Source: an uncultured Gammaproteobacteria bacterium (GTDB lineage: Bacteria > Patescibacteriota > Patescibacteriia > Magasanikbacterales > UBA922). From it: a DNA stretch of 64,000 nucleotides. Below the pieces are notes generated by a model. That model saw nothing but the letters and a program-made list of their open reading frames with translations. It was not told the DNA's origin and searched no databases. Both the position numbers and the translations under genes were made by a program. This document shows positions 18,965 through 48,665 of this stretch, one piece after another (position 1 is the stretch's first letter; every line of letters starts with the position of its first letter). Where the stretch lies: positions 21,963 through 85,962 of the forward strand of contig CAZMHV010000001.1 of assembly GCA_964566225.1 (NCBI GenBank), read 5' to 3'.

Positions 18965-19116
18965 AGATTATGGTGTTCGTTGTAGGTTGGTTTTAAAAGG
19001 GGAGGTCGATCGTCTTTTTACTGCTCTACAATGCCCGTTTTTTGGAAATTACCAAAAACTTCTATATTTTTTAAAACAACGGATTTTACTCAGTTGTTTT
19101 TTTGTATAAAAAAATT

Positions 19117-20265: not shown

Positions 20266-20285
20266 TACAGAGTGAAGTTACATCG

Positions 20286-20360: not shown

Positions 20361-20393
20361 CACATCGCAGCAAACGCAAAAAGCAATAAAAAA

Positions 20394-25999: not shown

Positions 26000-26070
26000 G
26001 CGGGTGTAGTATAATGGTAGTATGCGACCTTCCCAAGGTTGAGGCACGGGTTCGATTCCCGTCATCCGCT
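26000..26070 (+). tRNA. tRNA-Gly (anticodon CCC)
   Basis: Cloverleaf folded by hand: acceptor GCGGGTG/CATCCGC, anticodon loop TTCCCAA, T-loop TTCGATT; no encoded CCA. Confidence 0.8.
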
Positions 26071-26199
26071 CAGGTTAAAACATCGCTTCATTGAGCGGTG
26101 TTTTTTTGTATCCATTGGTGAGGATCGAACTCATAGACAAAAATTTTGTGAATTGTTACAATTAGTGAGTAATTTATTTACATTTAAGTTAAGGCTCAT

Positions 26200-27198: not shown

Positions 27199-27310
27199 AT
27201 AGCTTTTAGTTCTAGGATGCCTATACCGCCGCGTGGAGTTCTGGTATACTATAAACCAACTGCCGATTCACCATCACCTCAGTTCGAACATCATCTACCA
27301 ACCCGCTCAA

Positions 27311-27342
27311 GAAAATATCCCTAAAATAAGGGATATTTTTTC
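27311..27342. terminator. AT-rich bidirectional hairpin (ATATCCCT-AAAATA-AGGGATAT + T-run)
   Basis: 8-bp stem read directly. Confidence 0.4.
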
Positions 27343-27409
27343 ATTTGACCCGCAGCTATGGTGGTGTTATGATATAAATCAATACTGAATTGAGTCACGA
27401 GAGAGGCTA

Positions 27410-27426
27410 TGGTACAAATTGTACCA
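27410..27426. promoter_or_regulatory. 17-bp perfect palindrome TGGTACAA-A-TTGTACCA between a -10-like TATGATATAAAT and the KilA-N gene start; candidate operator
   Basis: Arms are exact reverse complements. Confidence 0.4.
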
Positions 27427-27450
27427 CTCCTTTTATGAATTTATATCTCT

Positions 27451-28266
27451 ATGAAGAAAATTATCACCCATGGTTTGCAGATATCAGTTATAAAGGATAA
27501 CCAAGAAGAATATATTTCTTTGACGGATATGGCAAAATTCAAAGATCGTGAAGCTACTGGAATCGTAATTGCAAATTGGTTATCAACGAAATATACTATT
27601 CAATTCATGGGAGCTTGGGAACAAGTACATAATCCTGGTTTTAATGTTATGGAATTCCATAACATTAAAAATGAGGCTGGTTCCAATGGATTCATACTGT
27701 CTTCTTCAAAATGGATTCAAAAAACAAATGCAATCGGTATAAGATCCTCCGCCGGTAGATATGGAGGAACTTTTGCGCATCGAGATATTGCCTTTGAATT
27801 TGCAACTTGGCTATCACCAGAGTTTAAACTCTATTTGATCAAAGAATTTCAAAGGTTGAAACTCGAAGAAAATAAAAAATTAGAACTTGGTTGGGATACC
27901 AAAAGAATGCTTACTAAAATAAATTATCGCATTCATACAGATGCTATTCAAAAAAATCTCATACCAAAAGAAATTACTAAGGCACAGGCAAACGTTATTT
28001 TTGCGAGTGAGGCCGATGTACTCAATAAGGCACTTTTTGGTATGACTGCAAAAGAATGGCGTGACAAAAATTCAAAATTAAAAGGTAATATCCGCGATTA
28101 TTCGGATGTAACACAACTTATTTGTCTTGCAAATTTAGAGTCTTTTAATGCGGAATTTATACGGCAAGGTCTTTCTCAAGCTGAACGTTTATTAAAACTC
28201 AATGAGATTGCCATTATTCAAATGAAGTCTTTGCTGGGAAATAATTCCTTGAAAAAATTGAGTTAA
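27451..28266 (+). CDS. KilA-N domain protein (phage/MGE-associated DNA-binding domain) with C-terminal extension
   Basis: The N-terminal approximately 110 aa match the KilA-N pattern (ISLTDMAKF...WLS...GTFAHRDIAFEFATWLSPEF). Confidence 0.65.
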   Translation: MKKIITHGLQISVIKDNQEEYISLTDMAKFKDREATGIVIANWLSTKYTIQFMGAWEQVHNPGFNVMEFHNIKNEAGSNGFILSSSKWIQKTNAIGIRSSAGRYGGTFAHRDIAFEFATWLSPEFKLYLIKEFQRLKLEENKKLELGWDTKRMLTKINYRIHTDAIQKNLIPKEITKAQANVIFASEADVLNKALFGMTAKEWRDKNSKLKGNIRDYSDVTQLICLANLESFNAEFIRQGLSQAERLLKLNEIAIIQMKSLLGNNSLKKLS

Positions 28267-28282
28267 TTACTGATAAAATTTT

Positions 28283-28861
28283 ATGGAAATTCAACGACCT
28301 CCTTCAAAACAATCCCTCCCATCAAATGCGAAACTAGTATTTAAGGGAACAATTTTTGATGTATACCAGTGGAAACAAGAAGGATATGATGGGAAAATAA
28401 AAATTTTTGAAAAAATAAAAAGACCTGACACTGTGGTGATTCTTCCAATCTTAGAAGATGGTAAAATACTCTTAGCTCGGCAAGAACAACCAGGCAAGGA
28501 ACCTTTCTTGGGTACAGTAGGCGGAAGAGTCGACGAAGGCGAGACCCCACTTGAAGCAGCAAAAAGGGAACTTTTGGAGGAAAGTGGATATGAAGCAGAA
28601 GAATGGTCTCTCTTTCATTCTGTCCAACCTGTCAGTAAAATGGAATGGGCTGTTTACATATTTATTGCCAAACAATGTAAAAAAGTTGCAGATCAGAATC
28701 TTGATGGTGCTGAGAAAATAGATCTGATGCCTGTTGACTTTAATACATTCACAAATTTGGTGTTGGATAAAGATTTTGTAGATTTGGAATTAAAAGTAAA
28801 ATTTTGGGAGGCTAAATTGGATCCCAATCTTATGGAAGAGTATAAAAAAATGTTGTCTTAA
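28283..28861 (+). CDS. NUDIX hydrolase
   Basis: Nudix box GGRVDEGETPLEAAKRELLEESGY. Confidence 0.8.
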   Translation: MEIQRPPSKQSLPSNAKLVFKGTIFDVYQWKQEGYDGKIKIFEKIKRPDTVVILPILEDGKILLARQEQPGKEPFLGTVGGRVDEGETPLEAAKRELLEESGYEAEEWSLFHSVQPVSKMEWAVYIFIAKQCKKVADQNLDGAEKIDLMPVDFNTFTNLVLDKDFVDLELKVKFWEAKLDPNLMEEYKKMLS

Positions 28862-29047
28862 TATAAATATTTTTGTATGAGCGAAATGCCCCACGTTTAG
28901 AAAAATCATTTATAAGAGAAGTGCTGGACGGACCATTGAATTTAAATCAGAAATCAATTTTTTATTTCATGATGCATTTAAAAAAGGGGAAGTTGCTACT
29001 TTGGATACAAGTTCAACTGCTTCAGAAAAAGCAGCATAATAAACACT

Positions 29048-29380
29048 ATGCTTATTGAATCCAATTTTTTCAAAATTCAAGTAATTGTACCTCTGACTCA
29101 TGCAGATGTTGTTCGCAGTGCACTTGGAAGTGCTGGCGCTGGAAGACAAGGAAACTATGATTATTGCACAGGTTCTGTTCGCCAAACAGGGCGTTTTCGT
29201 CCACTGGCGGGGGCAGAGCCATCTATTGGTGAAGTAGGAAAGTTCGAAGAAATTGAAGAAGAAATCATTTCAACATTGTGTCATAAAGATTTGGTAGAAG
29301 TGGTCGTTGCAGAGGTAAAAAAAGTACATCCATACGAAGAACCACCAATTGACATTCTTCCTCGTTTTGAGATACAATAG
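29048..29380 (+). CDS. small CutA/PII-fold-like protein (putative divalent-cation tolerance protein family)
   Basis: C-terminal EVKKVHPYEEPPIDILP resembles the CutA HPYEVPEI motif. Assignment is tentative. Confidence 0.4.
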   Translation: MLIESNFFKIQVIVPLTHADVVRSALGSAGAGRQGNYDYCTGSVRQTGRFRPLAGAEPSIGEVGKFEEIEEEIISTLCHKDLVEVVVAEVKKVHPYEEPPIDILPRFEIQ

Positions 29381-29405
29381 CGCCACTTTGCTGGTCAAAG
29401 TGCGC

Positions 29406-29476
29406 GCCTCTTTGGTTCAGTGGTAGAACGGCGGTATCGTAAACCGCATGCGCCAGTTCGATTCTGGCAAGAGGCT
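29406..29476 (+). tRNA. tRNA-Thr (anticodon CGU)
   Basis: Acceptor GCCTCTT/AAGAGGC, D-arm GTTC-AGTGGTA-GAAC, anticodon loop ATCGTAA, T-arm GCCAG-TTCGATT-CTGGC. Confidence 0.8.
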
Positions 29477-29492
29477 CTGAATATATTTTTTT

Positions 29493-29990
29493 ATGGCAGA
29501 ATCTAAAAATAAAACATCATGGGAAGGTCTTGTTGAAGATCATAAAATTCGCAACTCAGCAGAAGCTATTCTTCCTGATTATGAAGAAGAAACGCCTCTT
29601 GCTGCTTTGGCTTACGAGAGACAGGAACAAAATTCATTTGGTCTCAATGATGATAGTGTCGCATCAGAGTTTGATGTTTTTAAGACTCTTATCACTCAAA
29701 AGAAAGGATTTCCGGAAATAGACATTGAAGGAAATATTTTTCATATTTTGAAACAATCACTTGAAATGGATGAAGGTGGAGAAAGTGGGGTTTTGGTTCT
29801 TGTGTTGGATGCGCAAATAAATGATAGAGAAGAAGTTTATTGGATTTATGAGATAGGAATTCAAAAATATCAAAAAATCTTTCAAAAGAGAAGTATGAGC
29901 CCGGTATTTGAAAATATAGAGCAAGGTCCTGTGGAAAAATCTGGTGAGTATAAGTTTTTATTCAAATTTTCAACTATAAAATTAAATTGA
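29493..29990 (+). CDS. hypothetical acidic protein (165 aa)
   Basis: ORF with native composition only. Confidence 0.4.
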   Translation: MAESKNKTSWEGLVEDHKIRNSAEAILPDYEEETPLAALAYERQEQNSFGLNDDSVASEFDVFKTLITQKKGFPEIDIEGNIFHILKQSLEMDEGGESGVLVLVLDAQINDREEVYWIYEIGIQKYQKIFQKRSMSPVFENIEQGPVEKSGEYKFLFKFSTIKLN

Positions 29991-29998
29991 ACACCTTT

Positions 29999-30035
29999 CG
30001 TCCGACCCCCACAAACAGGGTCGGATTTTTTATTT
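29999..30035 (+). terminator. intrinsic terminator (CCGACCC-CCACAAACA-GGGTCGG + T-run)
   Basis: 7-bp GC stem followed by TTTTTTATTTTTT. Confidence 0.6.
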
Positions 30036-30071
30036 TTTAGCAAAATATGGTATACTATTTCCATTGCATAT

Positions 30072-30752
30072 ATGATCAAACTTTCTGGCGTTACCAAACA
30101 ATACACACGAGACTCCACAGGACTCAAAGATGTCCATCTTTTTATTGATGCAGGTGAGTTTGTGTCTGTGGTAGGTCAGAGTGGCACTGGCAAAACTACA
30201 CTGGTAAAGTTGCTTATTGCTGAGGAACGTCCCACCAAAGGCAAAATTGAAATTGGTGGTTGGGATATTACCAAAATTGGGCAACGAGATATTCCACTTT
30301 TGCGCAGACAAATTGGTGTTATTTTTCAAGACTTCAAATTATTGCCCAAAAAAACCGTAGCTGAAAATGTGGAGTTTGCCATGCAGGTGGCAGGGGAGTC
30401 ACCCTGGCGTATGCGTACCGTAGTCCCTCGTGTACTCGATATCGTGGGCTTAGATCACAAAAAACATCGATACCCCTATCAACTTTCTGGTGGAGAACAG
30501 CAGCGTGTAGCCATTGCTCGTTCTTTGGTACACAGGCCCAAAATTCTTGTTGGAGATGAACCTACTGGAAATTTAGATGCCGTGAATACTCAAGAAATTA
30601 TTGAAATGCTCAAAAAAATTAATGAATTTGGTACTACTATTGTACTCGTTACGCACAACAAAGACGTGGTCAACCAACTTCGTAAACGTGTTATTACGTT
30701 GCACAATGGAGAGATTGTCTCCGACGAAGTTGAGGGAAAATATCGACTATAA
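30072..30752 (+). CDS. ftsE: cell-division ABC ATPase FtsE
   Basis: Walker [13 protein letters not shown] signature [13 protein letters not shown], Walker [13 protein letters not shown]. Immediately upstream of ftsX. Confidence 0.9.
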
Positions 30753-30761
30753 AATACAACT

Positions 30762-31670
30762 ATGTTTTCTTTTTTCCGTGTTGTAAAATTTGCATTTCAA
30801 GATTTTTTTCGAAACTTTAGTTTGTCATTCATGACTATTGTCATGCTTATACTCATGCTTTTGTCGGTGAATGTGTTTATTGTCGTACGAGTACTTACTG
30901 ACAAAGCAGTGGCTGCTGTCAAAGATCAAATTGATGTCAGTATTTATTTTCGTCCAGACATTTCAGATCAACAAATTGGTGAGGTTCGCAATCATCTCAA
31001 AACCTTTCCAGAAGTGACTACTACTACGTTTCTTTCACAAAAAGAAGTACTTGAAAAATTTAAAGAAACTCACAAGGGCAACAAAGAAATTCTCTCTTCT
31101 CTCGATGAAATTGGTGAAAATCCACTTGGTGCCACACTGATTGTAAAAACTCGTGACCCGAGTGATTACAAAAAAATTATTACTGCTATCAATGTTCCAG
31201 AGTACGAAAAAATTATTGAAGACAAAACTTTTGCCACAACTCAAAACACTATTGAAAACATTCATGTTATTACTACCAATGTACAAAAGTTTGTTCTCTT
31301 TATTGGTATTTTATTTACTTTTATTTCTCTCCTCGTTATTTTCAATACTATTCGTGTGGGCATTTATACCCACAGAATGGAGATTGCCGTCAAAAAGCTC
31401 GTAGGGGCCACCAACTGGTTTATCCAGGGTCCATATTTTGTCCAAAGTTTTATTTTTAGTCTGGTATCGGTCACCCTTACACTGCTTCTTATTTTTGTAT
31501 CCACTCGTTTTATTGACCCATATATTTCTGTAGTTTTCCACCAAAATCAATTCTTGACAAATTACTTTTTTTCGCATATACTAGTGCTGTTTGGAGCGCA
31601 GCTGGGGATAGTATTCTTTCTTACCCTGTGTACCTCTGGACTGGCTATGCGCAAGTATTTGCGTATATAA
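30762..31670 (+). CDS. ftsX: cell-division permease FtsX
   Basis: N-terminal TM, periplasmic domain, three C-terminal TM helices. Paired with ftsE. Confidence 0.8.
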   Translation: MFSFFRVVKFAFQDFFRNFSLSFMTIVMLILMLLSVNVFIVVRVLTDKAVAAVKDQIDVSIYFRPDISDQQIGEVRNHLKTFPEVTTTTFLSQKEVLEKFKETHKGNKEILSSLDEIGENPLGATLIVKTRDPSDYKKIITAINVPEYEKIIEDKTFATTQNTIENIHVITTNVQKFVLFIGILFTFISLLVIFNTIRVGIYTHRMEIAVKKLVGATNWFIQGPYFVQSFIFSLVSVTLTLLLIFVSTRFIDPYISVVFHQNQFLTNYFFSHILVLFGAQLGIVFFLTLCTSGLAMRKYLRI

Positions 31671-31744
31671 AAGGCAATTTTCACGTCATTAGAGAAGGCG
31701 CGAAAGCGCTTTTTTCAAATCTATTGCACCAAGTGTGCATACAT

Positions 31745-31815
31745 TCGGGGATCGTCTAATGGTAGGACAGTAGCCTTTGAAGCTATTTATCTTGGTTCGA
31801 ATCCAAGTCCCCGAG
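31745..31815 (+). tRNA. tRNA-Gln (anticodon UUG)
   Basis: Acceptor TCGGGGA/TCCCCGA, anticodon loop CTTTGAA, T-arm CTTGG-TTCGAAT-CCAAG. Confidence 0.7.
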
Positions 31816-33236: not shown

Positions 33237-33265
33237 TTGACTTTTGTCCAAAATTCATGTACATT
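33237..33265 (+). promoter_or_regulatory. sigma70-like promoter TTGACT-17nt-TACATT for the HAD gene
   Basis: Read directly. Followed by GGGGGAGG SD 7 nt before ATG. Confidence 0.45.
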
Positions 33266-33303
33266 TTTTTCACCCCACATTCCACAACCGGGGGAGGAGC
33301 ACC

Positions 33304-34017
33304 ATGCCGTTCGAACTCATGAGACAACGAGTTGCAGTCAGTCGGGCTGCGGGCAGAGACCCCGTGGTGGTCCTCGACCTGGACCACACCCTCTTCGACA
33401 ACGGTCCTCGGACCTGTGAGATTCTGCTCGAGTATGCCAACCAGCACAATCGCCCCGATCTGGGTGATGCGGTCATCGGTCTCGGCAACCTGCGCAATCT
33501 GCCGTATCTGTTCAAGGACATCGTGAACTTTGCCTTCAAGGGGCAGATTCCGAGTGATCTGGATCTCGGTGAGATCGGCAAGTTCTGGAAGGAGCGATTC
33601 TTCCAGGACGACTATATCAAGCATGACGTTCCCATCGAGGGGGCAGCCGAGTTCGCTCGGGGTATTCGCCTGGAGGGTGCACATCTGGTGTACCTGACTG
33701 GTCGTGATCGCCCCAACATGATGAAAGGCACTGTCAATAGCTTGTGGCATCACAGTTTTCCGGTGCCGGCGGACGGGGGGGTGACTCTCATCCTCAAGCC
33801 CTCGTTCGACCAGCCCGACGAGGACTTCAAGCGTGATGCCGTGTCCCAAATTCAGGGCATGGGTGAGGTGGTCGGGTTCGTCGACAACGAACCGGCCATG
33901 TGCCAGATCTTCAGGGACGCATTCCCCAAGGCCGTCATCATCTGCTACGGCGACATCTGCTTCAAGCCCATGGAGCTGCCGCCGAGCGTGTACCGGGTGA
34001 AGTCCTTCCCGGTCTGA
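33304..34017 (+). CDS. HAD-superfamily phosphatase/hydrolase, GC-rich
   Basis: Motif I VVLDLDHTLFDN (DxDxT), motif II LTGR, motif IV GFVDNE. High GC3. Confidence 0.6.
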   Translation: MPFELMRQRVAVSRAAGRDPVVVLDLDHTLFDNGPRTCEILLEYANQHNRPDLGDAVIGLGNLRNLPYLFKDIVNFAFKGQIPSDLDLGEIGKFWKERFFQDDYIKHDVPIEGAAEFARGIRLEGAHLVYLTGRDRPNMMKGTVNSLWHHSFPVPADGGVTLILKPSFDQPDEDFKRDAVSQIQGMGEVVGFVDNEPAMCQIFRDAFPKAVIICYGDICFKPMELPPSVYRVKSFPV

Positions 34018-34151
34018 CCGTCACCGCGACGGATTCAACCCCACTGAGGGGACATGGACGGCACAAAAAACCGTTCGCGCAGCTTGCTGTGTTACTTTAA
34101 AAAAAGTGGCAGAGCAGGAGGCAAGCGAACGGTTTTTTTGTTTGAAATTTG

Positions 34152-34180
34152 TTGACTTTTAACATAAATAAAGGTAGTAT
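34152..34180 (+). promoter_or_regulatory. sigma70-like promoter TTGACT-17nt-TAGTAT for the 71-aa ORF
   Basis: Read directly. Confidence 0.4.
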
Positions 34181-34251
34181 TTTTTCAGAAAGGAGTCTCT
34201 AGTACGACTTTTACTCGAGAGTGTCTCACCCAAGAAAAAGGAAGATATCCC

Positions 34252-34467
34252 ATGGGGATTAGTCCGGAAGAACTCAGAAGGTTGAGAGAAGAAATCGGCC
34301 AGGTCGGCAGGGGCGAGCCGGTCGACGGGGTCTATGTGCTCATGCACAACGGTGTGGTGCACAGAGATCACAACGGTCAGTCCGTCGCTCCCGATGATCC
34401 ATTCTGGAACAGCGACGAAGCCGTCCTCGAGCGCCGGCGTGTCGAGCGCGAAAAGGCAGGATCCTGA
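34252..34467 (+). CDS. GC-rich small hypothetical protein (71 aa)
   Basis: AAAGGAAG SD and canonical promoter. No homology recognised. The antisense ORF 34159..34479 is rejected. Confidence 0.35.
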   Translation: MGISPEELRRLREEIGQVGRGEPVDGVYVLMHNGVVHRDHNGQSVAPDDPFWNSDEAVLERRRVEREKAGS

Positions 34468-34638
34468 ATCCACACGCACCGTCCTCTTCAGCCCCGCGAG
34501 TGGCTGGCGTCAAGAGGAATTTTTTCAACTCGCCTAGGGGGCGCCCGGATCATGAAGACGCACATTGATCCGGCACTGACTATTTATTTTATTTGTTAGA
34601 ATAAATTGAGGTGACTTCTTTAAGAGTACATTGAGGTA

Positions 34639-37766: not shown

Positions 37767-39523
37767 AAAACTATACCTTAAATACAACTCAAAACAAAAA
37801 AAGTAGCATGTGGGGAGCCCTGCGCAAAATGTATGCGTACATGAGTGATGAAAAGGGAACACTGCTTGTGGCGCTTGTAGCTACCATTATCAACTCCAGT
37901 TCTAATTTGTTGGGGCCATATATTTTTGGTCTTACGATTGATAAATTTATTATCAAAAAAGATTATGATGGAGTTTTGTATTACTCCCTTATTTTGTTTG
38001 GCATTTACGTTATTTCTTTTCTTGCACACAACGTACAAATGCGTCTCACTGGTGGAGTTGGACAGCGAGTGCTCTTTAAACTGCGCAATACTATTTTCAA
38101 TAAATTGCAATCTTTGCCAGTATCATTTTTTAACTCCAACAAAATTGGGGACTTGATTTCCCGCATCAACAATGACACAGATAAACTCAATCAATTTTTT
38201 TCTGAAACCCTCACCAGATTTATTGGAAGTATCTTTATTATTGGTGGTGCCGGTGCTTTTGTTGTGATTATTCATCCTCGACTTGGGCTTGCAGCACTTG
38301 TGCCTGCGCTTCTTATTTTAATTTTCACTCGTGTCATGTCACCACTTGTCAAAAGAAAAAATACCAAAGCATTGCAATCGACCGGCGTCATGAGTGCAGA
38401 GATTCAAGAAAGTTTGAATAACTTCAAAGTGATTGTGGCCTTTCACCGTCAGGATTATTTTCAAAAGAAATTTAGTGAAGTGAACCAAAAGAATTTTGAT
38501 GCGTCGATTGGTTCAGGTATTGCCAACACGATTTTTACCCCAATTTATGACTTTGCGGCCAACGCCGCACAGCTGATTGTGTTTGGCTATGGTGTGTACC
38601 TAATCATGCAAGGAGATTTGACTGTGGGACTCATGATTAGTTTTATTTCATACATGAATCGTTTTTACGATCCACTCAAACAAATGGCCATGCTGTGGGC
38701 GTCATTTCAAACAGCACTCGCAGGATGGGATCGTGTGGCTGAAATTTTGGCACTCGAATCTGACCTTACGGTGAGTGGCCAAGAGAACAATGTGTTGCCA
38801 GGGGCCAAATTACTCGAATTTCGTGATGTATCATTTCGGTATATTCCCGAAAAAGACGTGTTGAAACATTTTAATTTTCATTTGGAAAAAGGAAAAACCT
38901 ATGCACTTGTGGGACCAACCGGTGGTGGCAAAACAACCACGGCTTCACTCATGGCACGTTTGTTTGATCCAAGCGAAGGACAAATTCTTTTGAATGGCAA
39001 AGACTTGCGTGATTACACCGAAGAAGAACGCACCCAAAAAATTGGTTTTATTTTGCAAGAACCATTTTTGTTCACTGGCACGGTGGCGGAAAATATTGTC
39101 TATGGAAACAAAAAGTACGAGGGACTTGCCGGAGACGAATTATTGAAAGTTTTGCAAGACCATAACTTTGAAACATTGCTCGCACGTTTTGACGAAGGAC
39201 TCGAAACCAAAATTACAACCAGTTCAGATACCATGAGTCTTGGTCAAAGACAGCTCATTGCTTTCATGCGCGCAGTACTTCGTCACCCAGAAATTTTGAT
39301 TCTTGACGAAGCCACCGCCAACATTGATACAGTCACCGAACAACAACTCGAAGATATTTTGAGCAAGCTTCCAGCCGAGACCACCAAGGTTATTATTGCA
39401 CACCGTCTCAACACCATTGAAAATGCTGACGATATATTTTTTATCAACGACGGTCAGCTCACCGAAGCTGGATCACTTGACCATGCCGTGAGTATGCTGC
39501 TCGAGGGCAAGCGGGTGAGTTAA
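37763..39523 (+). CDS. ABC exporter, fused permease/ATPase (ABCB type), subunit 2
   Basis: Walker A GPTGGGKTT, LSLGQRQL, Walker B LILDEATANID. Overlaps subunit 1 by 4 nt, suggesting a heterodimer. Confidence 0.85.
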   Translation: MKNYTLNTTQNKKSSMWGALRKMYAYMSDEKGTLLVALVATIINSSSNLLGPYIFGLTIDKFIIKKDYDGVLYYSLILFGIYVISFLAHNVQMRLTGGVGQRVLFKLRNTIFNKLQSLPVSFFNSNKIGDLISRINNDTDKLNQFFSETLTRFIGSIFIIGGAGAFVVIIHPRLGLAALVPALLILIFTRVMSPLVKRKNTKALQSTGVMSAEIQESLNNFKVIVAFHRQDYFQKKFSEVNQKNFDASIGSGIANTIFTPIYDFAANAAQLIVFGYGVYLIMQGDLTVGLMISFISYMNRFYDPLKQMAMLWASFQTALAGWDRVAEILALESDLTVSGQENNVLPGAKLLEFRDVSFRYIPEKDVLKHFNFHLEKGKTYALVGPTGGGKTTTASLMARLFDPSEGQILLNGKDLRDYTEEERTQKIGFILQEPFLFTGTVAENIVYGNKKYEGLAGDELLKVLQDHNFETLLARFDEGLETKITTSSDTMSLGQRQLIAFMRAVLRHPEILILDEATANIDTVTEQQLEDILSKLPAETTKVIIAHRLNTIENADDIFFINDGQLTEAGSLDHAVSMLLEGKRVS

Positions 39524-39570
39524 CAAGAGAAACAAAAACCAAAAACTGCTCCACAAGGGCAGTTTTTGTA

Positions 39571-39599
39571 TTGACATTTTTGTGTTTTGGGTGTACTGT
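39571..39599 (+). promoter_or_regulatory. sigma70-like promoter TTGACA-17nt-TACTGT for the GC-rich ORF; preceded by a weak terminator hairpin (39545-39563)
   Basis: Read directly. Confidence 0.45.
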
Positions 39600-39636
39600 C
39601 CGAGCATCACCAACCATCGCCCGAAAGGGGCAAACC

Positions 39637-40062
39637 ATGGCACGCGAAGATTGGAATGAGATTCAGCTCGGCCTCGTCGAGCGGATGAAGCGGGCTTTTG
39701 AGCACTGGCTCACCAAGAACAGCTGGAACGAGGAAGGTCCGTACAAGAAGGACATTCCGGAGCTTCGTCGCATTGTGGAGCGGAGCTTCAACTTGCTCCG
39801 CCTCTACAAGACGGAGGATCACCCGGGAGTCAAGTTCCTGATCATCCTGGGGGACCAGTACCTCGCGCGCTACGGGCAGTTGGCCCTGCCCACGGACGAG
39901 GACTGCTCGGCCCACAACTCCTCCTACCAGATGGAGAACCGGCTCATCCGCATGTTCATCCACGCGGGTTTCGAGCTGTGGGGCTTCTGCGTCATCCCGC
40001 AGATCAATAACCCCAAAACCAGCGCCGAGCCGTACTACATCGTGGTGGTGAAGATGCCCTGA
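39637..40062 (+). CDS. GC-rich hypothetical protein (141 aa)
   Basis: GGGG SD. Very high GC3 in this frame only. No homology recognised. Confidence 0.5.
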   Translation: MAREDWNEIQLGLVERMKRAFEHWLTKNSWNEEGPYKKDIPELRRIVERSFNLLRLYKTEDHPGVKFLIILGDQYLARYGQLALPTDEDCSAHNSSYQMENRLIRMFIHAGFELWGFCVIPQINNPKTSAEPYYIVVVKMP

Positions 40063-40182
40063 GCATCGACGTCCAAGGGGGGAGGAGGGGACGCATAAAG
40101 ATCATCAATTTTGGTGGTCTTTTTTGTTTGTGGGGATAACTCCCCTTGACTCTCACGTTACGTCATGGTTTAAAGTAGGTAT

Positions 40183-40938
40183 ATGAAAGAGTATTCTATT
40201 CAACAACTGGCCACCCTCGCAGGAGTCAGTGTGCGCACACTGCACTACTACCATGAAATTGGCCTGCTCACTCCTGCCCATGTCAAAAGCAATGGGTATC
40301 GTTACTATGGTGAAAAGCAATTGCTCTTGCTGCAACAAATTCTTTTTTTCAAAGAGCTCGAATTTCCACTTGATGAAATAAAAAGAATTGTGAAGTCGCC
40401 GTATTTTGATATGGAAACTGCTTTGCAGGAGCAAAAAAAAATGCTCTTGCTCAAAAGGAAACGAGTAGAAAAACTTATTCAAACCATTCATAAAACTTTA
40501 CAAAGTATGAAACAAGATGAAAAACTCCAAGACGAAGAATTGTATGATGCCTTCAAAGACGATGATGTCAAACAGTACCAAGACGAAGTCAAACAGCGTT
40601 GGGGCAACACCGATGCGTACAAACAAAGCATGGCGCGCGTGGGCAAAATGACCAAAGCGCAAATGGATAAATTTAAAGAAGATGGAAAAAAATTTACACA
40701 AAAACTTGCTGACGCAATGGATAAAGATATACAGAGTAAAGAAGTACAAGACCTGATTGTCGAGCACTACAAAGGCATTCAATTTTTTTATGACTGTCCA
40801 CTCGATATGTATCGTAACCTCGGAAAAATGTATGTCGATGATGCACGATTCACTGCGTACTATGATACGTTTCGGCCAGGGCTTGCCGTGTTTGTGCGTG
40901 ATGCGATTGAATATTTTTGTGAGGTAAATAAAAAGTAA
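40183..40938 (+). CDS. MerR-family transcriptional activator with C-terminal TipAS-like drug-binding domain (TipA/Mta type)
   Basis: N-terminal HTH YSIQQLATLAGVSVRTLHYYHEIGLL, followed by a coiled coil and C-terminal domain. Confidence 0.75.
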   Translation: MKEYSIQQLATLAGVSVRTLHYYHEIGLLTPAHVKSNGYRYYGEKQLLLLQQILFFKELEFPLDEIKRIVKSPYFDMETALQEQKKMLLLKRKRVEKLIQTIHKTLQSMKQDEKLQDEELYDAFKDDDVKQYQDEVKQRWGNTDAYKQSMARVGKMTKAQMDKFKEDGKKFTQKLADAMDKDIQSKEVQDLIVEHYKGIQFFYDCPLDMYRNLGKMYVDDARFTAYYDTFRPGLAVFVRDAIEYFCEVNKK

Positions 40939-40944
40939 AGAGAA

Positions 40945-40985
40945 AATAAAAAACTCCACTGATATATTTCAGTGGAGTTTTTAAA
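40945..40985. terminator. bidirectional intrinsic terminator (ACTCCACTGA-TATATT-TCAGTGGAGT, A/T flanks)
   Basis: 10-bp perfect stem read directly. Confidence 0.7.
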
Positions 40986-41178
40986 TTTTGGAATTTCGTC
41001 CTGGCTCCGTATTGGCTGTGGACTCATCAGATTCTGCATCACAGAATGATTCCCCCAGATGCTTGCCGAGTCAAGCTTCTGGGTCATGCTTCTTTCTCCT
41101 TAGTGAGAAGCATCCTTGTTGTGGGTGATCAATGAAGATCATTGTTGCCAAGAGGTCTCGGTGTCTCTTGGCAGGTGC

Positions 41179-41520
41179 TCACGTGCCGGTGGCTTGCCGC
41201 AGGTCCTCGTGGAACTGCGCGCCGTCGAACAGGCGCTCACTCTGCGCGGGCTGGGCGTGGTGGCCCACGAGGGAGTCGAACATCCCCTCGCGGTCGTCAT
41301 CGACCAGTTCCACCTCCCCGGGCCAGCCGTCTTCGTGTCCGTCGACCCGGTCCGTGGTCACGCTCACCTCGGTGTCCACGTCCATCACGTGCGGGGCGGC
41401 GTTGGCCGGCTGGGTGTGGACCACCTGCACGACCACGGTTTCGGCCGGGGGCGTGGCGAGGTAGGCGGGCGTTCCGCGCATGGCGGGGCGGGGGGCGTCG
41501 TCGCTCATCCAAGGAAACAT
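41179..41520 (-). CDS. GC-rich acidic hypothetical protein (113 aa: MFPWMSDDAPRPAMRG...)
   Basis: GGAGAG SD 5 nt before ATG. GC3 about 90% in this frame. Overlapping ORFs in the other five frames are treated as GC shadows. Confidence 0.45.
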   Translation of the reverse strand: MFPWMSDDAPRPAMRGTPAYLATPPAETVVVQVVHTQPANAAPHVMDVDTEVSVTTDRVDGHEDGWPGEVELVDDDREGMFDSLVGHHAQPAQSERLFDGAQFHEDLRQATGT

Positions 41521-41581
41521 GGTTCTCTCCGTCTCGTGAAGGCAAGCTCTCGCTCGCCGTTGGGTTCGCCCGTCGATCGCG

Positions 41582-41628
41582 GGCACCAAAAAATTTTTGT
41601 CTCCGAGACTTAAAAATTTTTTGGTGCC
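41582..41628. repeat. 47-nt near-perfect palindrome: 17-bp perfect arms GGCACCAAAAAATTTTT / AAAAATTTTTTGGTGCC around an inner GTCTC-CGA-GAC mini-hairpin
   Basis: Arms are exact reverse complements. Lies between two co-directional GC-rich ORFs. Confidence 0.75.
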
Positions 41629-41716
41629 TACGATTTTTTTTGAGAAATTGAAATGGCGGGCGGTGCAGTTCTCCTTTCTATTGATGCACCGTGTTTGCCA
41701 CCCCGAAATGGGAAGA

Positions 41717-42085
41717 TCAGTGGACGTCGGCGTCGCCCTTGGGGAGGTACGAGCCCTCCTCCAGGGTGAACTCGTCGTCGATCACGGAGGTGATCTGGTA
41801 GCGGATTTCGCCCGTCACCATATCCCGTTTCACGATCATGCGCGTCTCCACTGGGCGACATGTCTCGAAGTCGTCGTACTGGTGGTTCTTCACCGCCTGC
41901 TTGACGATGTCTTCGCCAGCGTCGTGCTCGTCGCACTTGGGCGACACATCCACGGTCGGCGCGGGCCGACGGATGAACGTGATGGCCTCGTCCTTTTGGG
42001 GCTGCAGCGGGTTCATCACCTGCCACAGGCCGAAGAAGAACATGGCCATCAGCGCCGCAATCTGGGCAAAGAGCTTCCAGCTCAT
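41717..42085 (-). CDS. GC-rich membrane-anchored hypothetical protein (122 aa; N-terminal TM MSWKLFAQIAALMAMFFFGLWQVM)
   Basis: GGAGAGGG SD. High GC3. One TM helix then a soluble domain. Confidence 0.45.
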   Translation of the reverse strand: MSWKLFAQIAALMAMFFFGLWQVMNPLQPQKDEAITFIRRPAPTVDVSPKCDEHDAGEDIVKQAVKNHQYDDFETCRPVETRMIVKRDMVTGEIRYQITSVIDDEFTLEEGSYLPKGDADVH

Positions 42086-42306
42086 GTAAATCCCTCTCCA
42101 GTCAACATGGTTGTCAAACAAACGGTGACATCGCACCGCCATTTCAACTTCTCAATATAAATGCCAAAATACAGCAATTTCGCTGTACCGTTTGAGTTGT
42201 AAGAAACTGAGATGGGTGCGGCGCGACAGACAGAAGATCCTCCTGGATTCTTCTGCTGTATCGCTTACCCCCACCACCTGCTCGAGTCGCCGTTCGTCCG
42301 TGAGGA

Positions 42307-42480
42307 CTACTGGCGGCGGCTGGGCAGGTCGCCCGCCGGACGCGTCCGGGGCGGGCTGTTGAACCAGGCCTCTTCGACGGGGTCGAACCCGTCCTTCTCA
42401 CCCGGGTTGTTCGGACCCTCCGGACCGGGGATCTCGATGCAGGGGGTGGCGTCGGTGGTGATGTTCCTCTCGGGGGCCAT
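42307..42480 (-). CDS. GC-rich Pro/Gly-rich small ORF (57 aa)
   Basis: GGAGA SD, high GC3, downstream hairpin. The antisense ORF 42212..42628 is a competing call. Confidence 0.3.
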   Translation of the reverse strand: MAPERNITTDATPCIEIPGPEGPNNPGEKDGFDPVEEAWFNSPPRTRPAGDLPSRRQ

Positions 42481-42587
42481 TGGGGGTCTCCGTATTCTAG
42501 TTCCCGTTACCACGGGAGGGGCGGGGGTAAGTGCGATTGGTATCGCGCCGCCATCTCAATTTCCTTCAATTGTAAACGGGAAAGGAT

Positions 42588-42616
42588 ATCACAAAACAAA
42601 GTTTTTGTCAAGTCCT
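42588..42616 (-). promoter_or_regulatory. sigma70-like promoter TTGACA-17nt-TATCCT on the minus strand, heading a roughly 110-nt leader into the GC-rich cluster
   Basis: Read on the minus strand. Coordinates are approximate (within a few nt). Confidence 0.35.
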
Positions 42617-42743
42617 GGGAGTGGATAAAATAAAATTATTTACCTAAAATAAGCAAAAAAGTGAAATATTGAAAGAAATTTTGGTACCCTCCTGTAGTAT
42701 ACATAGAACCGGCTAGCCAACAACTTATCTTTAATTATTTCGT

Positions 42744-43199
42744 ATGAAGACACCATTCAATAAAAAGTATATAGCTATTCCAGCCATTGCAGCCCTCGGC
42801 ATATTTGCCGGCGGCACAGCCTTGGCTCATGGTGGACCAAGTTTTCTATGGAAGACCGACCCTGCAACTGCGGCCACTCAGTGGGAACAAAAACTCACGC
42901 AAGAAGCAGATATTTTGGGCATTAGTGTCGATGAAATGAAAACCAATTGGGCAGCGGGCAAAGGTGTGCGTGAAATTGCCAAAGAAAAAGGCATCAGTGA
43001 TGCTGATCTGCAAAAAAAATTTCAAGTAGCACGTGAACAACACCAAAAAGATATGCTTCAGAGTTTGGTGAGCCAAGGAAAAATTACACAGGCGCAGGCA
43101 GATGCCAGGCTCAAATTTATGAAAGATAATCAAGGAAAAAAACAAAATAAATCTGTTCATGGGCGAATGATGCATTCACCAGGCTCCATGATGCAATAA
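42744..43199 (+). CDS. secreted hypothetical protein with His/Met-rich C-terminus (HGRMMHSPGSMMQ)
   Basis: Signal peptide MKTPFNKKYIAIPAIAALGIFAGGTALA. Helical repeats. Confidence 0.5.
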   Translation: MKTPFNKKYIAIPAIAALGIFAGGTALAHGGPSFLWKTDPATAATQWEQKLTQEADILGISVDEMKTNWAAGKGVREIAKEKGISDADLQKKFQVAREQHQKDMLQSLVSQGKITQAQADARLKFMKDNQGKKQNKSVHGRMMHSPGSMMQ

Positions 43200-43328: not shown

Positions 43329-43892
43329 TTGAATTCCGTAGACAATTTTATGCCTCCTGCAGAGTTTTCTGATGAGCAGATAGTGGTTCTGGTAAGAGAA
43401 AAAAATAAAGAACTGTATAGTGAAATTATTTCGCGTTACCACATTAAGCTTACCCATTATTTGCGAAAATTTATTCATGATAGAGATGAACTTGAAGACG
43501 TGCTTCAGGCGGTTTTTATTAAGGCCTATGAAAACTTGTATGGGTTTGACGAAAAAAGAAAATTTTCTTCGTGGATTTATCGTATTGCACACAATGAAGC
43601 TATCAATCATATTAAAAAGTACGCCAAAATTTCTGTATCAGTTGACGAGGTTGAACATTTGATGGTTGATGAAAAAGTTGATTTGTCTCGTGGTGTAGAT
43701 CAAGGAATTCTCAAAGAAAAAGTTGAAAATGCTTTGTACCAAATGAAAGATAATTATCGTGAAGCGCTTATTTTGTACTTTTTTGAAGAAAAATCCTATG
43801 AAGAAATGAGTGATATTTTGCGAGTTCCCATAAATACCGTGGGAACACTCATTGCCAGGGGCAAAAAGAACTTGAAAAAATTTTTAGAGTAG
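43329..43892 (+). CDS. ECF-type RNA polymerase sigma factor (sigma-70 regions 2 and 4)
   Basis: Region 2 (VFIKAYENLYGFDEKRKFSSWIYRIAHNEAINHIKK) and region 4 HTH (YREALILYFFEEKSYEEMSDILRVPINTVGTLIARGKKNL). Confidence 0.8.
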   Translation: MNSVDNFMPPAEFSDEQIVVLVREKNKELYSEIISRYHIKLTHYLRKFIHDRDELEDVLQAVFIKAYENLYGFDEKRKFSSWIYRIAHNEAINHIKKYAKISVSVDEVEHLMVDEKVDLSRGVDQGILKEKVENALYQMKDNYREALILYFFEEKSYEEMSDILRVPINTVGTLIARGKKNLKKFLE

Positions 43893-46146: not shown

Positions 46147-46197
46147 GTAATTGAGAATAATCCGTCAATTATCCACGACCAACAGGGAGTAGTCCAC

Positions 46198-46818
46198 ATG
46201 CACTGGTTTTTTATTGCCATTATTGTCGTTTGTCTGTTTCCGATGAGCGTCTTGGCTCAGGTTCAGGCATATATCGTCGGTCGTACTCAGGCCGAGATTC
46301 TTTTGGAACTGCCGTGGAACTATGAAACCAGCGGTGGTTGGGAATTCAATCACTATGTTCTCACTGAGTCGGAGAATGTCACTGAAGGATTCCTGGGGCT
46401 TGGGACGGGAATCGGGATCGTTGGAGACGATATGGAATTGGAGGTGGGGCCACTGTGGCATGCAGATGAAGGTGAACTCGCTGTTTCGGCAGCTCTGTTC
46501 ATTTTGATGCATGACAAGGTCCGACTCGATTTTCATGGGCATGCGTCTTTGGAGGAATCGCATGGTGTGGCTGCTTTGGGGTATGTCTTTACCGATTGGT
46601 TTTTTGCGGGTTTGGTTGCCGAAGTGAGCCGAAATCCAGAGGCGATTCTTTCTCTTGGTGGTGCTTATCTGGCAGGGGTGTATCACCACCATTCTCGTGT
46701 GAAATTCTCAATGCTTTTTGGTACGTTTGCCTCTGGTTATGAAATCCCCGAGGATAAGCGTTTTCGGATCGCGTATATCGTTCCGACCTTGACGCTGGAA
46801 TTTCACTTTCATTTGTAG
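46198..46818 (+). CDS. GC-richer secreted beta-rich protein (206 aa), His-containing; possible small beta-barrel/OMP-like fold
   Basis: Signal peptide MHWFFIAIIVVCLFPMSVLAQVQA. Alternating hydrophobic pattern. C-terminal TLTLEFHFHL. Terminator hairpin at 46822-46845. Confidence 0.5.
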   Translation: MHWFFIAIIVVCLFPMSVLAQVQAYIVGRTQAEILLELPWNYETSGGWEFNHYVLTESENVTEGFLGLGTGIGIVGDDMELEVGPLWHADEGELAVSAALFILMHDKVRLDFHGHASLEESHGVAALGYVFTDWFFAGLVAEVSRNPEAILSLGGAYLAGVYHHHSRVKFSMLFGTFASGYEIPEDKRFRIAYIVPTLTLEFHFHL

Positions 46819-46871
46819 CATGCCGGGGCAGAACCTCGGCATGCCAGTGACTTGCTTTTTTCACTTTTTTT

Positions 46872-48665
46872 TTGTACCATAAAAAGATGAAAGACGTAAA
46901 ACTCTCTACTGGTCCTATTGTAATGTACTCAACCAAACAACTATTGGTTGATTTGTTTTTTTATCTTCATCCGTTTCGTGTTAAATTTTTTTGTGCTGTT
47001 ATATTTCGTCTGGTAAGTGATATTGTTTGGTTGTATCCATTTTATGCACTCTCACAAATTGTAAATTTTTTCTCTCACTATCAATCAGGTGATTCACTTG
47101 CAAATTTTTGGAAAATTTTTTCAATGTGGATTATTGCTGCTCTTTTATATTATAGTGGGCATTATTTTTCTAAATTTTTGGGATTTCGCATGGCCGAGCA
47201 AACCAATAGTCGGGCTCGTATTTTGGTGCTCAAACATCTTTTTTCTCTCGACTTGCATTGGCATGAAAAAGAAAATGCGGGGAATAAAATAAAGCGTATT
47301 GAAAAAGGTGCAGAAGGTCTCAACAGAATTTTACGCATGGTCATTGCCAATGTTATTGAGATAAGTGTGAATTTTGTGGGTATGACTTGGATTGTGGGAA
47401 GTATTGATAGGGTAGTGGGTCTTTGTTTAGTGGTATTTTTATCAACGTATTCTTGTATTTCTATATATTTACTCAAAAAGGCTCACCAGGCATCACAGCT
47501 GGTAGACATGAAAGACGAAGAAATTCATGGGCTTGCTTTTGAAGGAATGAATAATATTCGCAGTGTAAAAGTTTTGGGCATGGCAGATTCACTCTTTGAA
47601 ATTATTGAAAAAAATATCAAAGAATACGTACGGAGAATCTATAAACGGATTTTTTTCTTTCAAACTCGTGGAATCGTACAGGGTATTTGGTCCCAGAGTT
47701 GGTTACTTATTTCTTTGGTAGTAATTGTGTTTGGTATTATGAGTGGAAAGTACGAGGTTGGTTTTTTGGTGCTTTTCATGGGATATTTTCGTCGTATTAT
47801 TGAGTCACTCAATGAGTTATCCGAAGTTTCTCAAGATTTTGTTGTAGCCAAATATGGTGTTGGTCGAATGCAGTCAATAATGAATGAAAAAATTAATATT
47901 GATAATGATGAAGGAAAAGTTAATTTTCCGACTTCGTGGAAAAAAATCTCTCTTCGAGATGTATCATTTGCGTATGATCAAGATAAGGTACTCAGTCATA
48001 TATCGCTTGATATTCACAGAGGAGAAAAAGTAGGAATTGTAGGACTTTCTGGTGCCGGTAAATCGACTTTATTTAAATTGCTTCTCAAAGAAATAGAAAA
48101 TTATTCTGGAGAAATTCTTATTGATAACATACCTCTCAAAAACATAAAACGATCAGATTATTTTCACTACTCTGCTGTAGTGCTCCAAGAGACTGAAGTT
48201 TTTAACTTTACATTAGAACAAAACATTACTCTGGCCAATAAAAAGAAAGAAAAAAATTCTCAGTTGGTAGATCGTGCTCTTGCCATAGCTCATGTCTCTG
48301 ATTTTTTACAAAAATTTCCTTTGGGTAAGAAAACAGTGATTGGAGAAAAGGGGATAAAACTTTCGGGTGGAGAAAAACAGCGACTTGGCATTGCTCGTGC
48401 TGTGTTCAAACAACCTCAGTTGCTTTTTTTGGACGAAGCAACTTCGCATCTAGATATTGAATCCGAAGAAAAAATTCAAGATTCCTTGCATCAGTTTTTT
48501 CAAAATGTTACGGCGGTAGTCATTGCTCACAGACTTACGACCCTGCGTGAAATGGATAGAATTTTGGTGCTTGAGCATGGTAAAATTATTGAAGAAGGCT
48601 CATTTGAAGAACTCTCTGCCCAAAAAGGAAGATTCTTTGATTTATGGGAGAAACAAAAACTGTGA
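46872..48665 (+). CDS. ABC exporter, fused permease/ATPase
   Basis: Walker A GLSGAGKST, LSGGEKQRLGIAR, Walker B LFLDEATSHLD. 6-TM N-half. Confidence 0.8.
   Translation: MYHKKMKDVKLSTGPIVMYSTKQLLVDLFFYLHPFRVKFFCAVIFRLVSDIVWLYPFYALSQIVNFFSHYQSGDSLANFWKIFSMWIIAALLYYSGHYFSKFLGFRMAEQTNSRARILVLKHLFSLDLHWHEKENAGNKIKRIEKGAEGLNRILRMVIANVIEISVNFVGMTWIVGSIDRVVGLCLVVFLSTYSCISIYLLKKAHQASQLVDMKDEEIHGLAFEGMNNIRSVKVLGMADSLFEIIEKNIKEYVRRIYKRIFFFQTRGIVQGIWSQSWLLISLVVIVFGIMSGKYEVGFLVLFMGYFRRIIESLNELSEVSQDFVVAKYGVGRMQSIMNEKINIDNDEGKVNFPTSWKKISLRDVSFAYDQDKVLSHISLDIHRGEKVGIVGLSGAGKSTLFKLLLKEIENYSGEILIDNIPLKNIKRSDYFHYSAVVLQETEVFNFTLEQNITLANKKKEKNSQLVDRALAIAHVSDFLQKFPLGKKTVIGEKGIKLSGGEKQRLGIARAVFKQPQLLFLDEATSHLDIESEEKIQDSLHQFFQNVTAVVIAHRLTTLREMDRILVLEHGKIIEEGSFEELSAQKGRFFDLWEKQKL

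Follow-up and report, generated by a model that had tools for sequence, protein, structure and literature searches.

Conserved inverted repeats and a candidate hammerhead ribozyme at a variable slot for GC-rich orphan genes in a candidate-phyla-radiation bacterium

The sequences flanking 16S and 23S rRNA form RNase III processing stalks. In type I toxin-antitoxin loci such as hok/sok and aapA1/isoA1, the 5' and 3' parts of the mRNA pair across a small open reading frame (ORF). In integron cassettes, the attC site lies wholly 3' of its own ORF and carries the boxes R'' (RYYYAAC) and R' (GTTRRRY). Bacterial hammerhead ribozymes have been described on either side of single genes, or of short blocks of genes, within polycistronic and often prophage transcripts, and they cleave both in vitro and in vivo (PMC3088659). 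The present analysis concerns a GC-rich islet that resembles each of these systems in part. The islet lies in a 64,000-nucleotide stretch of DNA (contig CAZMHV010000001.1, positions 21,963 to 85,962 of the forward strand; assembly GCA_964566225.1), which is called the window below and in which all coordinates are given. On a tentative reading, the islet is a hypervariable chromosomal slot for accessory genes in a candidate-phyla-radiation bacterium, with RNA panhandles and a 3' ribozyme that shape its transcript.

The region at 41001-42500 is the longest and most GC-rich stretch in the window, with a GC content of 0.56-0.64 versus 0.404 overall. An earlier note, made from the sequence letters, had described the largest GC island of the window as a minus-strand cluster of three ORFs with one promoter and a 17-bp palindrome, and all of these were found where it had placed them. 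The foreign composition and the co-direction of the ORFs were supported, and the promoter was the sole one detected. The transcription unit contains the following features.

42611-42583, minus strand: sigma-70-type promoter, TTGACA-17-TATCCT with an extended TG (promoter scan, 10/12 match)
42307-42480, minus strand: ORF1, 57 aa, rich in Pro, Gly and Asp, without a transmembrane helix; GC content at third codon positions (GC3) 0.914
41717-42085, minus strand: ORF2, 122 aa, a single N-terminal transmembrane helix and, after it, a soluble part of poor prediction quality; GC3 0.886
41179-41520, minus strand: ORF3, 113 aa, acidic and largely disordered by prediction; GC3 0.904
40949-40982, both strands: bidirectional intrinsic terminator common to the islet and the convergent TipA-type gene (terminator scan)

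All three ORFs follow the order GC3 > GC1 > GC2 across codon positions, and their GC3 agrees with the value of about 90% given earlier; the GC3 of the adjacent genes is 0.37-0.40. Each ORF has its own Shine-Dalgarno sequence, again as proposed, of the GGAG type and 4-7 nt 5' of the ATG. ORFs in other frames, such as 41142-41651 on the plus strand, were checked as the expressed alternative. Their GC3 is 0.35-0.71 and they look like shadow frames. The absence of the codon-position pattern from these frames indicates that the proposed minus-strand frames are right, and these would be the frames that are translated. The promoter is the best sigma-70 match of the region and predicts a transcript start near 42577 with a leader of ~95-100 nt. 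It is kept as TTGACA-17-TATGAT, TTGACA-17-TAGACT and TTGACA-17-TATACT in three related contigs (L003, L131 and L146, respectively), with the -35 box and the 17-nt spacing conserved. The terminator at 40949-40982 is conserved in the same three contigs.

The earlier note had recognised no family for the three proteins, and no Pfam or PHROG family could be assigned here. The cargo proteins found nothing in Pfam, NCBIfam or PHROGs; for ORF1, searched in Pfam and PHROG only, there was one marginal PHROG match to a family without a function (E = 0.008). A k-mer search of 5.8 billion protein clusters found no credible homologue of ORF2 or ORF3 beyond their own lineage, and the only orthologues were those in L003. 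An exhaustive HMMER search with ORF2 against 1.84 billion representatives returned ORF2 and two further matches, to an RFKR-type repeat polyprotein and to a giant adhesin-like protein rich in repeats; each was built from 8-10 weak repeat matches and was rejected as a repeat-inflated artefact. No tblastn match to ORF3 was found in plasmids or phages. The structure prediction that had been suggested was carried out with AlphaFold2 for ORF2 and ORF3, and no confident fold was obtained. The predicted local distance difference test value (pLDDT) was 54 for ORF2, with a helix at residues 4-24, and 57 for the largely disordered ORF3. The exact window proteins were found solely on two short public assemblies, which are identical to the window.

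Inverted copies of the motif GAARTTGARATGGCGG, called arms below, flank ORF1 and also ORF2. Their behavior in related contigs defines the slot. The L003 contig, from another sample, is syntenic and ~95% identical, and it carries the same three ORFs. In another species (L131/L130), the neighbour protein is 73% identical, the promoter is at the same position, and nearly the same two arms enclose one unrelated GC-rich ORF of 70-85 aa (GC3 0.88) with an N-terminal transmembrane helix. The last arm of L131 ends just before the terminator. This L131 ORF was considered as an orthologue of ORF2 and rejected (BLASTP E = 25, non-significant). In L146, the neighbour protein is likewise 73% identical, and the site contains a different GC-rich ORF and no such arms, followed by a hairpin at the position termed P0 below and a hammerhead. 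The conserved arms and the variable interior across species indicate that the unit is arm-ORF-arm. The proposed survey of gene neighbourhoods thus shows a conserved slot architecture with cargo that varies among relatives, and the earlier description of one compact, self-contained module gave way to that of a conserved slot whose cargo differs by lineage. Deviant composition is combined with content that differs between relatives at a conserved site, as expected of a horizontally acquired islet. Neither an integrase gene nor a tRNA gene adjoins it.

The GC3 of the cargo is 0.77-0.91 across three lineages, in genomes of ~40% GC. In the more distant contigs L133, L149 and L150, synteny is lost and no GC-rich slot is present. 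No empty site was found; a scan of the genome collection with the TipA-type protein gave only a non-syntenic metagenome-assembled genome (63% identity). A 10-nt direct repeat, ACCGTTCTTT on the minus strand, was seen in L146 at ~2290-2305, after the -10 box, and at ~1495-1510, in the 3' untranslated region (UTR) upstream of P0. It brackets the GC-rich cargo of L146 and could be an insertion scar or chance.

The slot lies between the TipA-type gene and an operon of a DUF2680-like gene and an extracytoplasmic function (ECF) sigma factor gene. The MerR/TipA regulator and the ECF sigma factor had been named as the brackets of the cluster, and Pfam confirms both.

40183-40938: MerR/TipAS regulator, convergent with the islet
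42744-43199: DUF2680-like gene, 151 aa, between the islet and the sigma factor gene
43329-43892: ECF sigma factor

Named homologues of the DUF2680-like neighbour protein come from Candidatus Magasanikbacteria and Parcubacteria, and it is from these names that the host is taken to be a candidate-phyla-radiation bacterium. Compared with L003 4537-5295, the TipA-type gene at 40183-40938 has a synonymous substitution rate (dS) of 0.33, versus 0.07-0.13 in the remaining flanking genes, and it has a different C-terminus. Recombination may have involved this gene jointly with the variable sites to its left and right.

The arms belong to longer UTR strands, which define two units.

42515-42578, minus strand: 5' UTR strand of unit 1, with outer arm R1 (~42540-42571) and an inner helix strand (42519-42539); inverted repeat I5/I13
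42186-42285, minus strand: 3' UTR strand of unit 1, with an inner strand (42258-42276), a local hairpin (~42226-42257) and outer arm L1 (~42193-42224)
42100-42168, minus strand: 5' UTR strand of unit 2, with outer arm R2 (42132-42162) and an inner strand (42108-42131); inverted repeat I1, 27 nt at 89%
41628-41705, minus strand: 3' UTR strand of unit 2, with an inner strand (41676-41697) and outer arm L2 (41633-41665)

The start of R1 is at most a few nucleotides from that predicted for the transcript. The 3' strand of unit 2 ends in a run of A8, which is T8 on the plus strand (41634-41641), and L2 has a near-twin in the other species L131, the arm GCACCGCCCGCCATTTCAATTYCTCA. The UTR duplexes comprise 54, 50 and 38 predicted pairs overall, the 54 being those of unit 1 (-72.6 kcal/mol) and the 50 those of the full UTR duplex of unit 2. 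Cognate arms form the more stable duplexes, with -41.2 kcal/mol for R1-L1 and -40.8 kcal/mol for R2-L2 versus -33.3 kcal/mol for R1-L2 and -29.2 kcal/mol for R2-L1. Cognate arms also covary (GAGATGG/CCATCTC versus GAAATGG/CCATTTC). When whole units were folded, the minimum-energy folds closed both ends (z-score, z = -7.65 for unit 1, and -5.27). Like the stalks around rRNA, these repeats are at least a few hundred nucleotides apart, and their predicted duplex of at least 25 bp encloses a unit in a longer transcript. Unlike in the rRNA stalks, the enclosed units of the islet are small protein-coding genes, and cleavage by RNase III is putative.

Downstream of ORF3, the earlier note had suggested a possible fourth ORF with a strong Shine-Dalgarno sequence. 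This ORF (40860-41087) is not coding: its GC3 is 0.45, and L003 has GTG in place of the ATG together with a 1-nt deletion. The AAGGAGA taken for its Shine-Dalgarno sequence lies in a hairpin loop upstream of a hammerhead motif. The region overlies two conserved hairpins and a type III hammerhead candidate, which are listed here with a further hairpin.

41147-41172, minus strand: hairpin just 3' of the ORF3 stop codon, GCCAAGAG...CTCTTGGC; -13.9 kcal/mol, z = -4.9, identical in L003
41086-41113, minus strand: hairpin ATGCTTCT...AGAAGCAT with AAGGAGA in its loop; the stem is kept in L003 through a U-A to C-G change
41054-41083, minus strand: P0 hairpin, abutting hammerhead stem III; -18 kcal/mol, z = -3.5
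40988-41055, minus strand: type III hammerhead ribozyme candidate, with predicted cleavage after C41048 (41048/41047)

The hammerhead candidate of the window scores 26.8 bits against the Rfam model RF00008 (E = 0.0096 when 3.4 kb was scanned, and 0.00085 when 301 nt was scanned), and that of L003 also scores 26.8 bits. At the orthologous site of L146, just before the shared terminator, a hammerhead scores 35.3 bits (E = 0.00018). L146 also has a hairpin at the P0 position, of different sequence (-19.4 kcal/mol, z = -5.5). The window, L003 and L146 all have the full catalytic core: CUGAUGA, GAAA, the A15.1-U16.1 pair, C17, and AUC preceding the predicted site of cleavage. Stem I comprises 6 bp, stem II 4 bp (with an 18-nt loop in the window) and stem III 5-6 bp (5 bp in the window); stems I and II are closed by loops and stem III is open. 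All 15 pairs form in each of the three sequences, so that 45/45 cells are standard and no pair is broken. Compensatory changes occur in 4 pairs (3 in stem I and 1 in stem III), a value reached by 6/500 shuffles. When the 3' partners were slid by 1-3 columns, 20-54% of cells paired and no such compensatory changes appeared.

The candidate is the sole full match to the hammerhead descriptor in the 64-kb window. It was recovered by focused Rfam scans; a permissive scan of the whole window, with its filters, missed it, and a scan of the window at the gathering thresholds returned three tRNAs only. A purpose-built covariance model found no further ribozymes in the window or in 17 related loci, and two hammerhead sequence patterns had no match in the scans for further copies. 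The hammerhead at the islet tail is probably self-cleaving.

Compared with bacterial type III hammerheads (RF00008; PMC3088659), the candidate has the same complete core, three helices and open stem III. It likewise has the sense orientation and borders a short block of hypothetical genes, and its stem I is 2 bp longer than its stem II. Unlike them, both copies are sub-threshold, loop II has 18-21 nt, and no loop-loop pseudoknot is evident. This is a single ribozyme and not one of a flanking pair or triplet, and it has no integrase or prophage context. A position directly after P0 and directly before an intrinsic terminator also distinguishes it from the published hammerheads, as does its candidate-phyla-radiation host. 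The hammerhead would add a member to a known class, at a position that is both new and informative. To our knowledge, no role has yet been established for bacterial self-cleaving ribozymes. Here, the ribozyme has a fixed position that can be interpreted, with a protective hairpin in front of it and a terminator just behind it where the variable gene block ends, which makes a role in 3'-end maturation directly testable.

Comparison of the window with L003 separates the ORFs from the structures around them. The ratio of nonsynonymous to synonymous substitution rates (dN/dS) is 1.3 for ORF1, 1.9 for ORF2 and 1.3 for ORF3, versus 0.03-0.08 in four flanking genes of similar dS. The identity of the ORFs is 88.5-94.6%, and the arms and inner helices are identical at 211/213 positions. 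In unit 1, the 5' strand is identical at 31/32 positions of the arm and 20/20 of the inner strand, and the 3' arm and inner-helix strands are 100% identical. In unit 2, the 5' strands are identical at 54/55 positions and the 3' strand at 100%. The ribozyme outside loop II is identical at 50/50 positions. The inverted repeats around ORF1 and ORF2 and the ribozyme are therefore under purifying selection; the earlier account of the islet had overlooked both and was incomplete in this respect. Indels number 8 events in 747 nt of non-coding sequence versus 1 in-frame event in 885 nt of coding sequence, the latter being a 3-nt indel in ORF1 that leaves the frame intact. The intact ORFs and the few coding indels suggest that the reading frames matter, with barely any importance for the amino-acid sequences. 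These small proteins evolve fast, and their ORFs appear to be maintained open with no constraint on sequence. Selection acts on the UTR structures and not on the proteins, and the same arms surround unrelated ORFs in different species.

The same comparison bears on the possibility that the islet is decaying foreign DNA from a high-GC donor, in which the ORFs are unused and the hairpins are incidental or serve the neighbours as terminators or insulators. The dN/dS of 1.3-1.9, a divergence ~4 times that of the flanks, and the lack of homologues and confident folds are in line with decay, and neutral substitution would leave all three ORFs open with a probability of 0.18. Against this stand the arms (211/213) and the ribozyme (50/50), since ~17 changes would be expected at a dS of ~0.08. 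Neither the promoter nor the Shine-Dalgarno sequences nor the reading frames have been lost, and the indels avoid the ORFs. The slot also persists, with a GC3 of 0.77-0.88, in lineages that share only 73% identity in the neighbour protein; in a genome of 40% GC, DNA without a use would be expected to ameliorate or to disappear. Decay of the islet is consequently judged unlikely.

The conserved structures can be joined into one proposed mechanism, in which our confidence falls somewhat short of even. One conserved sigma-70 promoter would transcribe the high-GC orphan genes toward the terminator shared with the TipA-type gene. The UTRs of ORF1 would pair over ~50 bp, and those of ORF2 likewise, so that each ORF would lie in a panhandle, the first of them at the 5' end of the transcript, and a long hairpin would separate ORF2 from ORF3. 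The panhandles would protect the mRNA ends, and they may also be double-strand-specific processing stalks of the RNase III type that release single-gene mRNAs. The hammerhead after P0 would cut the terminator off and set the 3' end of the last cistron. Because P0 lies upstream of the cleavage site at C41048, the cleaved mRNA would end in a hairpin, six nucleotides and a 2',3'-cyclic phosphate.

Several observations weigh against this mechanism. L131 is without the ribozyme and L146 is without the arms, which indicates that neither element is obligatory. Both hammerhead scores are below the Rfam gathering score of 48.5 bits; the large loop II insertions would depress the RF00008 score. The covariation of the hammerhead is based on three sequences from two lineages, and on inspection, which would not reveal non-canonical contacts, loop I (UGAUG or UCAUG) has no Watson-Crick complementarity to loop II. 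The Shine-Dalgarno sequences stay 0.31-0.68 unpaired, and removal of the 3' arm shifts this value by at most 0.17; the panhandles do not sequester them, and no translational role is visible. A dN/dS near or above 1 would also be expected from dead DNA. The persistent high GC3 without an identifiable donor is not explained by panhandles and a ribozyme. Since no donor homologue occurs in the searched collections, neither a recent transfer from a sampled donor nor long residence easily accounts for it, and our best guess is that the high-GC cargo is replaced from an unsampled GC-rich pool. Lastly, the arm duplexes are equally stable in sense and antisense.

Without strand asymmetry in duplex stability, the repeats could act as DNA, e.g. 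as recombination or inversion sites. In one form, R-ORF-L would be an invertible phase switch for a small surface protein, with the promoter fixed outside; in another, it would be a non-autonomous cassette with terminal inverted repeats that is moved or exchanged by a recombinase or transposase from another locus. The geometry is suitable, as inverted repeats of 25-55 nt flank units of ~370-530 bp end to end with the promoter outside, and the arms of the same unit match each other best. The arms are kept across species and the interior differs. Divergence of the islet, ~4 times that of the flanks, is clustered and mosaic (index of dispersion 4.5), which suggests recombination, and the cargo is fast-evolving, with one ORF carrying a membrane anchor. 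However, Pfam searches of nearly all window ORFs of at least 100 aa revealed no recombinase domain, invertase, integrase, transposase or reverse transcriptase. The 64-kb window contains the arm motif nowhere else, and neither do the related contigs outside the slot. A scan of viral contigs with a 16-nt arm motif gave single chance-like matches only, and a metagenome scan with a 19-nt arm gave 8 matches, also chance-like. One orientation was seen in 5/5 independent assemblies that carry repeat-bounded units, from two lineages, and no target-site duplication was seen. The first arm lies at the predicted transcript start and the last arm of L131 just before the terminator. Arms at transcript ends are predicted by an RNA role and not by a DNA role. 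For these reasons, a role of the repeats as DNA sites, the strongest of the alternatives, is considered unlikely.

The panhandles also recall type I toxin-antitoxin units of the hok/sok or aapA/isoA style, in which a membrane-peptide mRNA would be inert until 3' processing. The 5' and 3' ends of the mRNA are predicted to pair over a long distance across a small ORF, as in these systems; two of the enclosed ORFs, ORF2 and the L131 ORF, start with a transmembrane helix; and the locus has a 3'-processing element, the hammerhead. The pairing is much longer than in hok/sok or aapA1/isoA1 (38-54 bp), and the panhandle masks neither the Shine-Dalgarno sequence nor the AUG. No antisense RNA was found, and a consensus scan, which weak promoters could escape, found no antisense promoter inside the units. 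One enclosed ORF, ORF1, is non-hydrophobic and has no such helix, the 122 aa of ORF2 exceed the typical size, and the ORFs are GC-rich. Moreover, the ribozyme is at the end of neither panhandle unit, and toxins are normally under purifying selection, unlike these ORFs with a dN/dS of at least 1. A toxin-antitoxin function is thus highly unlikely.

The remaining comparison is with mobile cassettes. As in integron cassettes, clusters of attC sites lacking integron integrases (CALINs) and invertons, the ORFs are small, co-oriented, foreign orphans with imperfect inverted repeats, and the slot content varies. In a CALIN, the intergenic palindromes would be attC sites of a cassette array without integrase. 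The lack of promoters for the individual ORFs would suit such an array, as would the attC-like length of the repeats between ORFs, with the IG1 hairpin of ~100 nt (z = -3.2). However, neither the attC consensus nor its geometry is present. RYYYAAC and GTTRRRY boxes were not found, and the sole GTT-containing candidate, GTTGAAA, pairs with TCTCAGT. An attC geometry wants L1 and R2 to match, and the observed value is -29.2 versus -41.2 and -40.8 kcal/mol for arms of the same ORF. One arm stands alone at the transcript start. The repeats lie at transcript ends and in one orientation, no recombinase is nearby, and no intI gene is present in the window. A CALIN is accordingly regarded as extremely improbable. 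A miniature inverted-repeat transposable element or other transposon was rejected, as in the window and the related contigs the arm motif occurs only in this slot and no flanking direct repeats were found. A retron was rejected for lack of a reverse transcriptase, and a diversity-generating retroelement for lack of both a reverse transcriptase and a pair of template and variable repeats.

The UTR-arm pattern points to a mode of small-gene packaging or exchange that is neither integron-like nor transposon-like. A narrow literature search found no description of an arm-bounded, ribozyme-ended slot with variable orphan cargo. Candidate-phyla-radiation bacteria are generally regarded as symbionts. 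We speculate, with low confidence, on a hitherto undescribed gene-cassette system of these bacteria with a fixed expression slot, whose promoter is conserved and whose terminator is shared, and interchangeable high-GC orphans, in which the 40-55-nt UTR arms would be both recombination handles and panhandles and the hairpin and hammerhead would finish the last cistron. If so, the fast evolution and high GC3 would reflect continual replacement from an unsampled GC-rich pool, e.g. the host of the symbiont or mobile elements. The islet is a concrete case of high-GC, codon-periodic orphans that persist in low-GC genomes, and it bears on the sources of new genes.

The palindrome between ORF2 and ORF3 forms part of a longer hairpin.

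41576-41634: long hairpin containing the palindrome 41582-41628, with T8 directly after it on the plus strand

The 17-bp arms (41582-41598 and 41612-41628) and the nested GTCTC-CGA-GAC hairpin are present as first described. The RNA fold of the palindrome has -30.5 kcal/mol (z = -7.1), and 0/200 shuffles fold as well; sense and antisense folds have about equal stability. The stem retained in L003 is 14 bp long and shows a compensatory change from A-T to G-C, and the loop is different and shorter. The compensatory change and the altered loop fit a nucleic-acid structure better than a fixed operator, so the suggested binding site for a dimeric regulator is less likely. The other suggestion, a terminator switch, was retained in part. 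It does not apply to the sense strand, as there is no U-tract on the ORF strand. T8 is present only on the plus strand, so the palindrome could terminate only antisense or TipA-side transcription, and it does resemble an intrinsic terminator for transcription from the TipA side. The hairpin may be a processing or stability element of the sense strand or an antisense terminator. The last arm of L131 leads into an A-rich run and then the terminator. By comparison, the window seems to have gained the block at ~41000-41630, which spans palindrome to hammerhead, between arm L2 and the terminator.

Another near-perfect hairpin was found at 20283-20363 on the minus strand, 3' of the S-adenosylmethionine synthetase gene (19102-20265). 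It has 21 + 6 bp (-49.7 kcal/mol, z = -7.5), and an Rfam microRNA match to it (E = 1e-4) is spurious. Taken with the islet palindrome, it suggests that long perfect hairpins are a recurring intergenic feature of this genome.

A second GC-rich islet lies at 39571-40062 on the plus strand (flanks 39540-40180), between an ATP-binding cassette (ABC) transporter and the TipA-type gene. It encodes an orphan ORF of ~141-163 aa (GC3 0.81), which has a separate TTGACA promoter and a separate terminator. At this site, L003 has a different and longer GC-rich sequence (~810 nt versus ~430 nt). A homologue of the ORF is found in L144, beside a DUF2680-like gene (27% identity, E = 7e-11). The inverted repeat around this islet (39514-39538 / 40121-40145) lies outside the predicted transcript of the gene. 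A third GC-rich island (33244-34500, GC 0.53-0.58) encodes a HAD-like protein of ~237-257 aa, with a weak Pfam HAD/acid-phosphatase match and a match to PHROG 415 'polynucleotide kinase' (E = 5e-12). It is followed by a possible minus-strand ORF at 34159-34479.

Between the ZnuA-like and RecQ genes, the region 46165-48665 consists of a GC-richer stretch (46165-46818, with ambiguous ORFs on both strands) and an ABC exporter (46872-48665). In L148 (3744-3899), ZnuA and RecQ are adjacent, and 46165-48665 of the window is thus another variable insertion site. The region 26000-31815 contains tRNA genes (26000, 29406 and 31745), a KilA-N protein (27451-28266), a NUDIX protein and several orphan ORFs, and it may be a mobile-element remnant. 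Finally, a 1934-aa ORF at 57062-62866 on the plus strand has Helicase_C, near its N-terminus, as its sole Pfam match.

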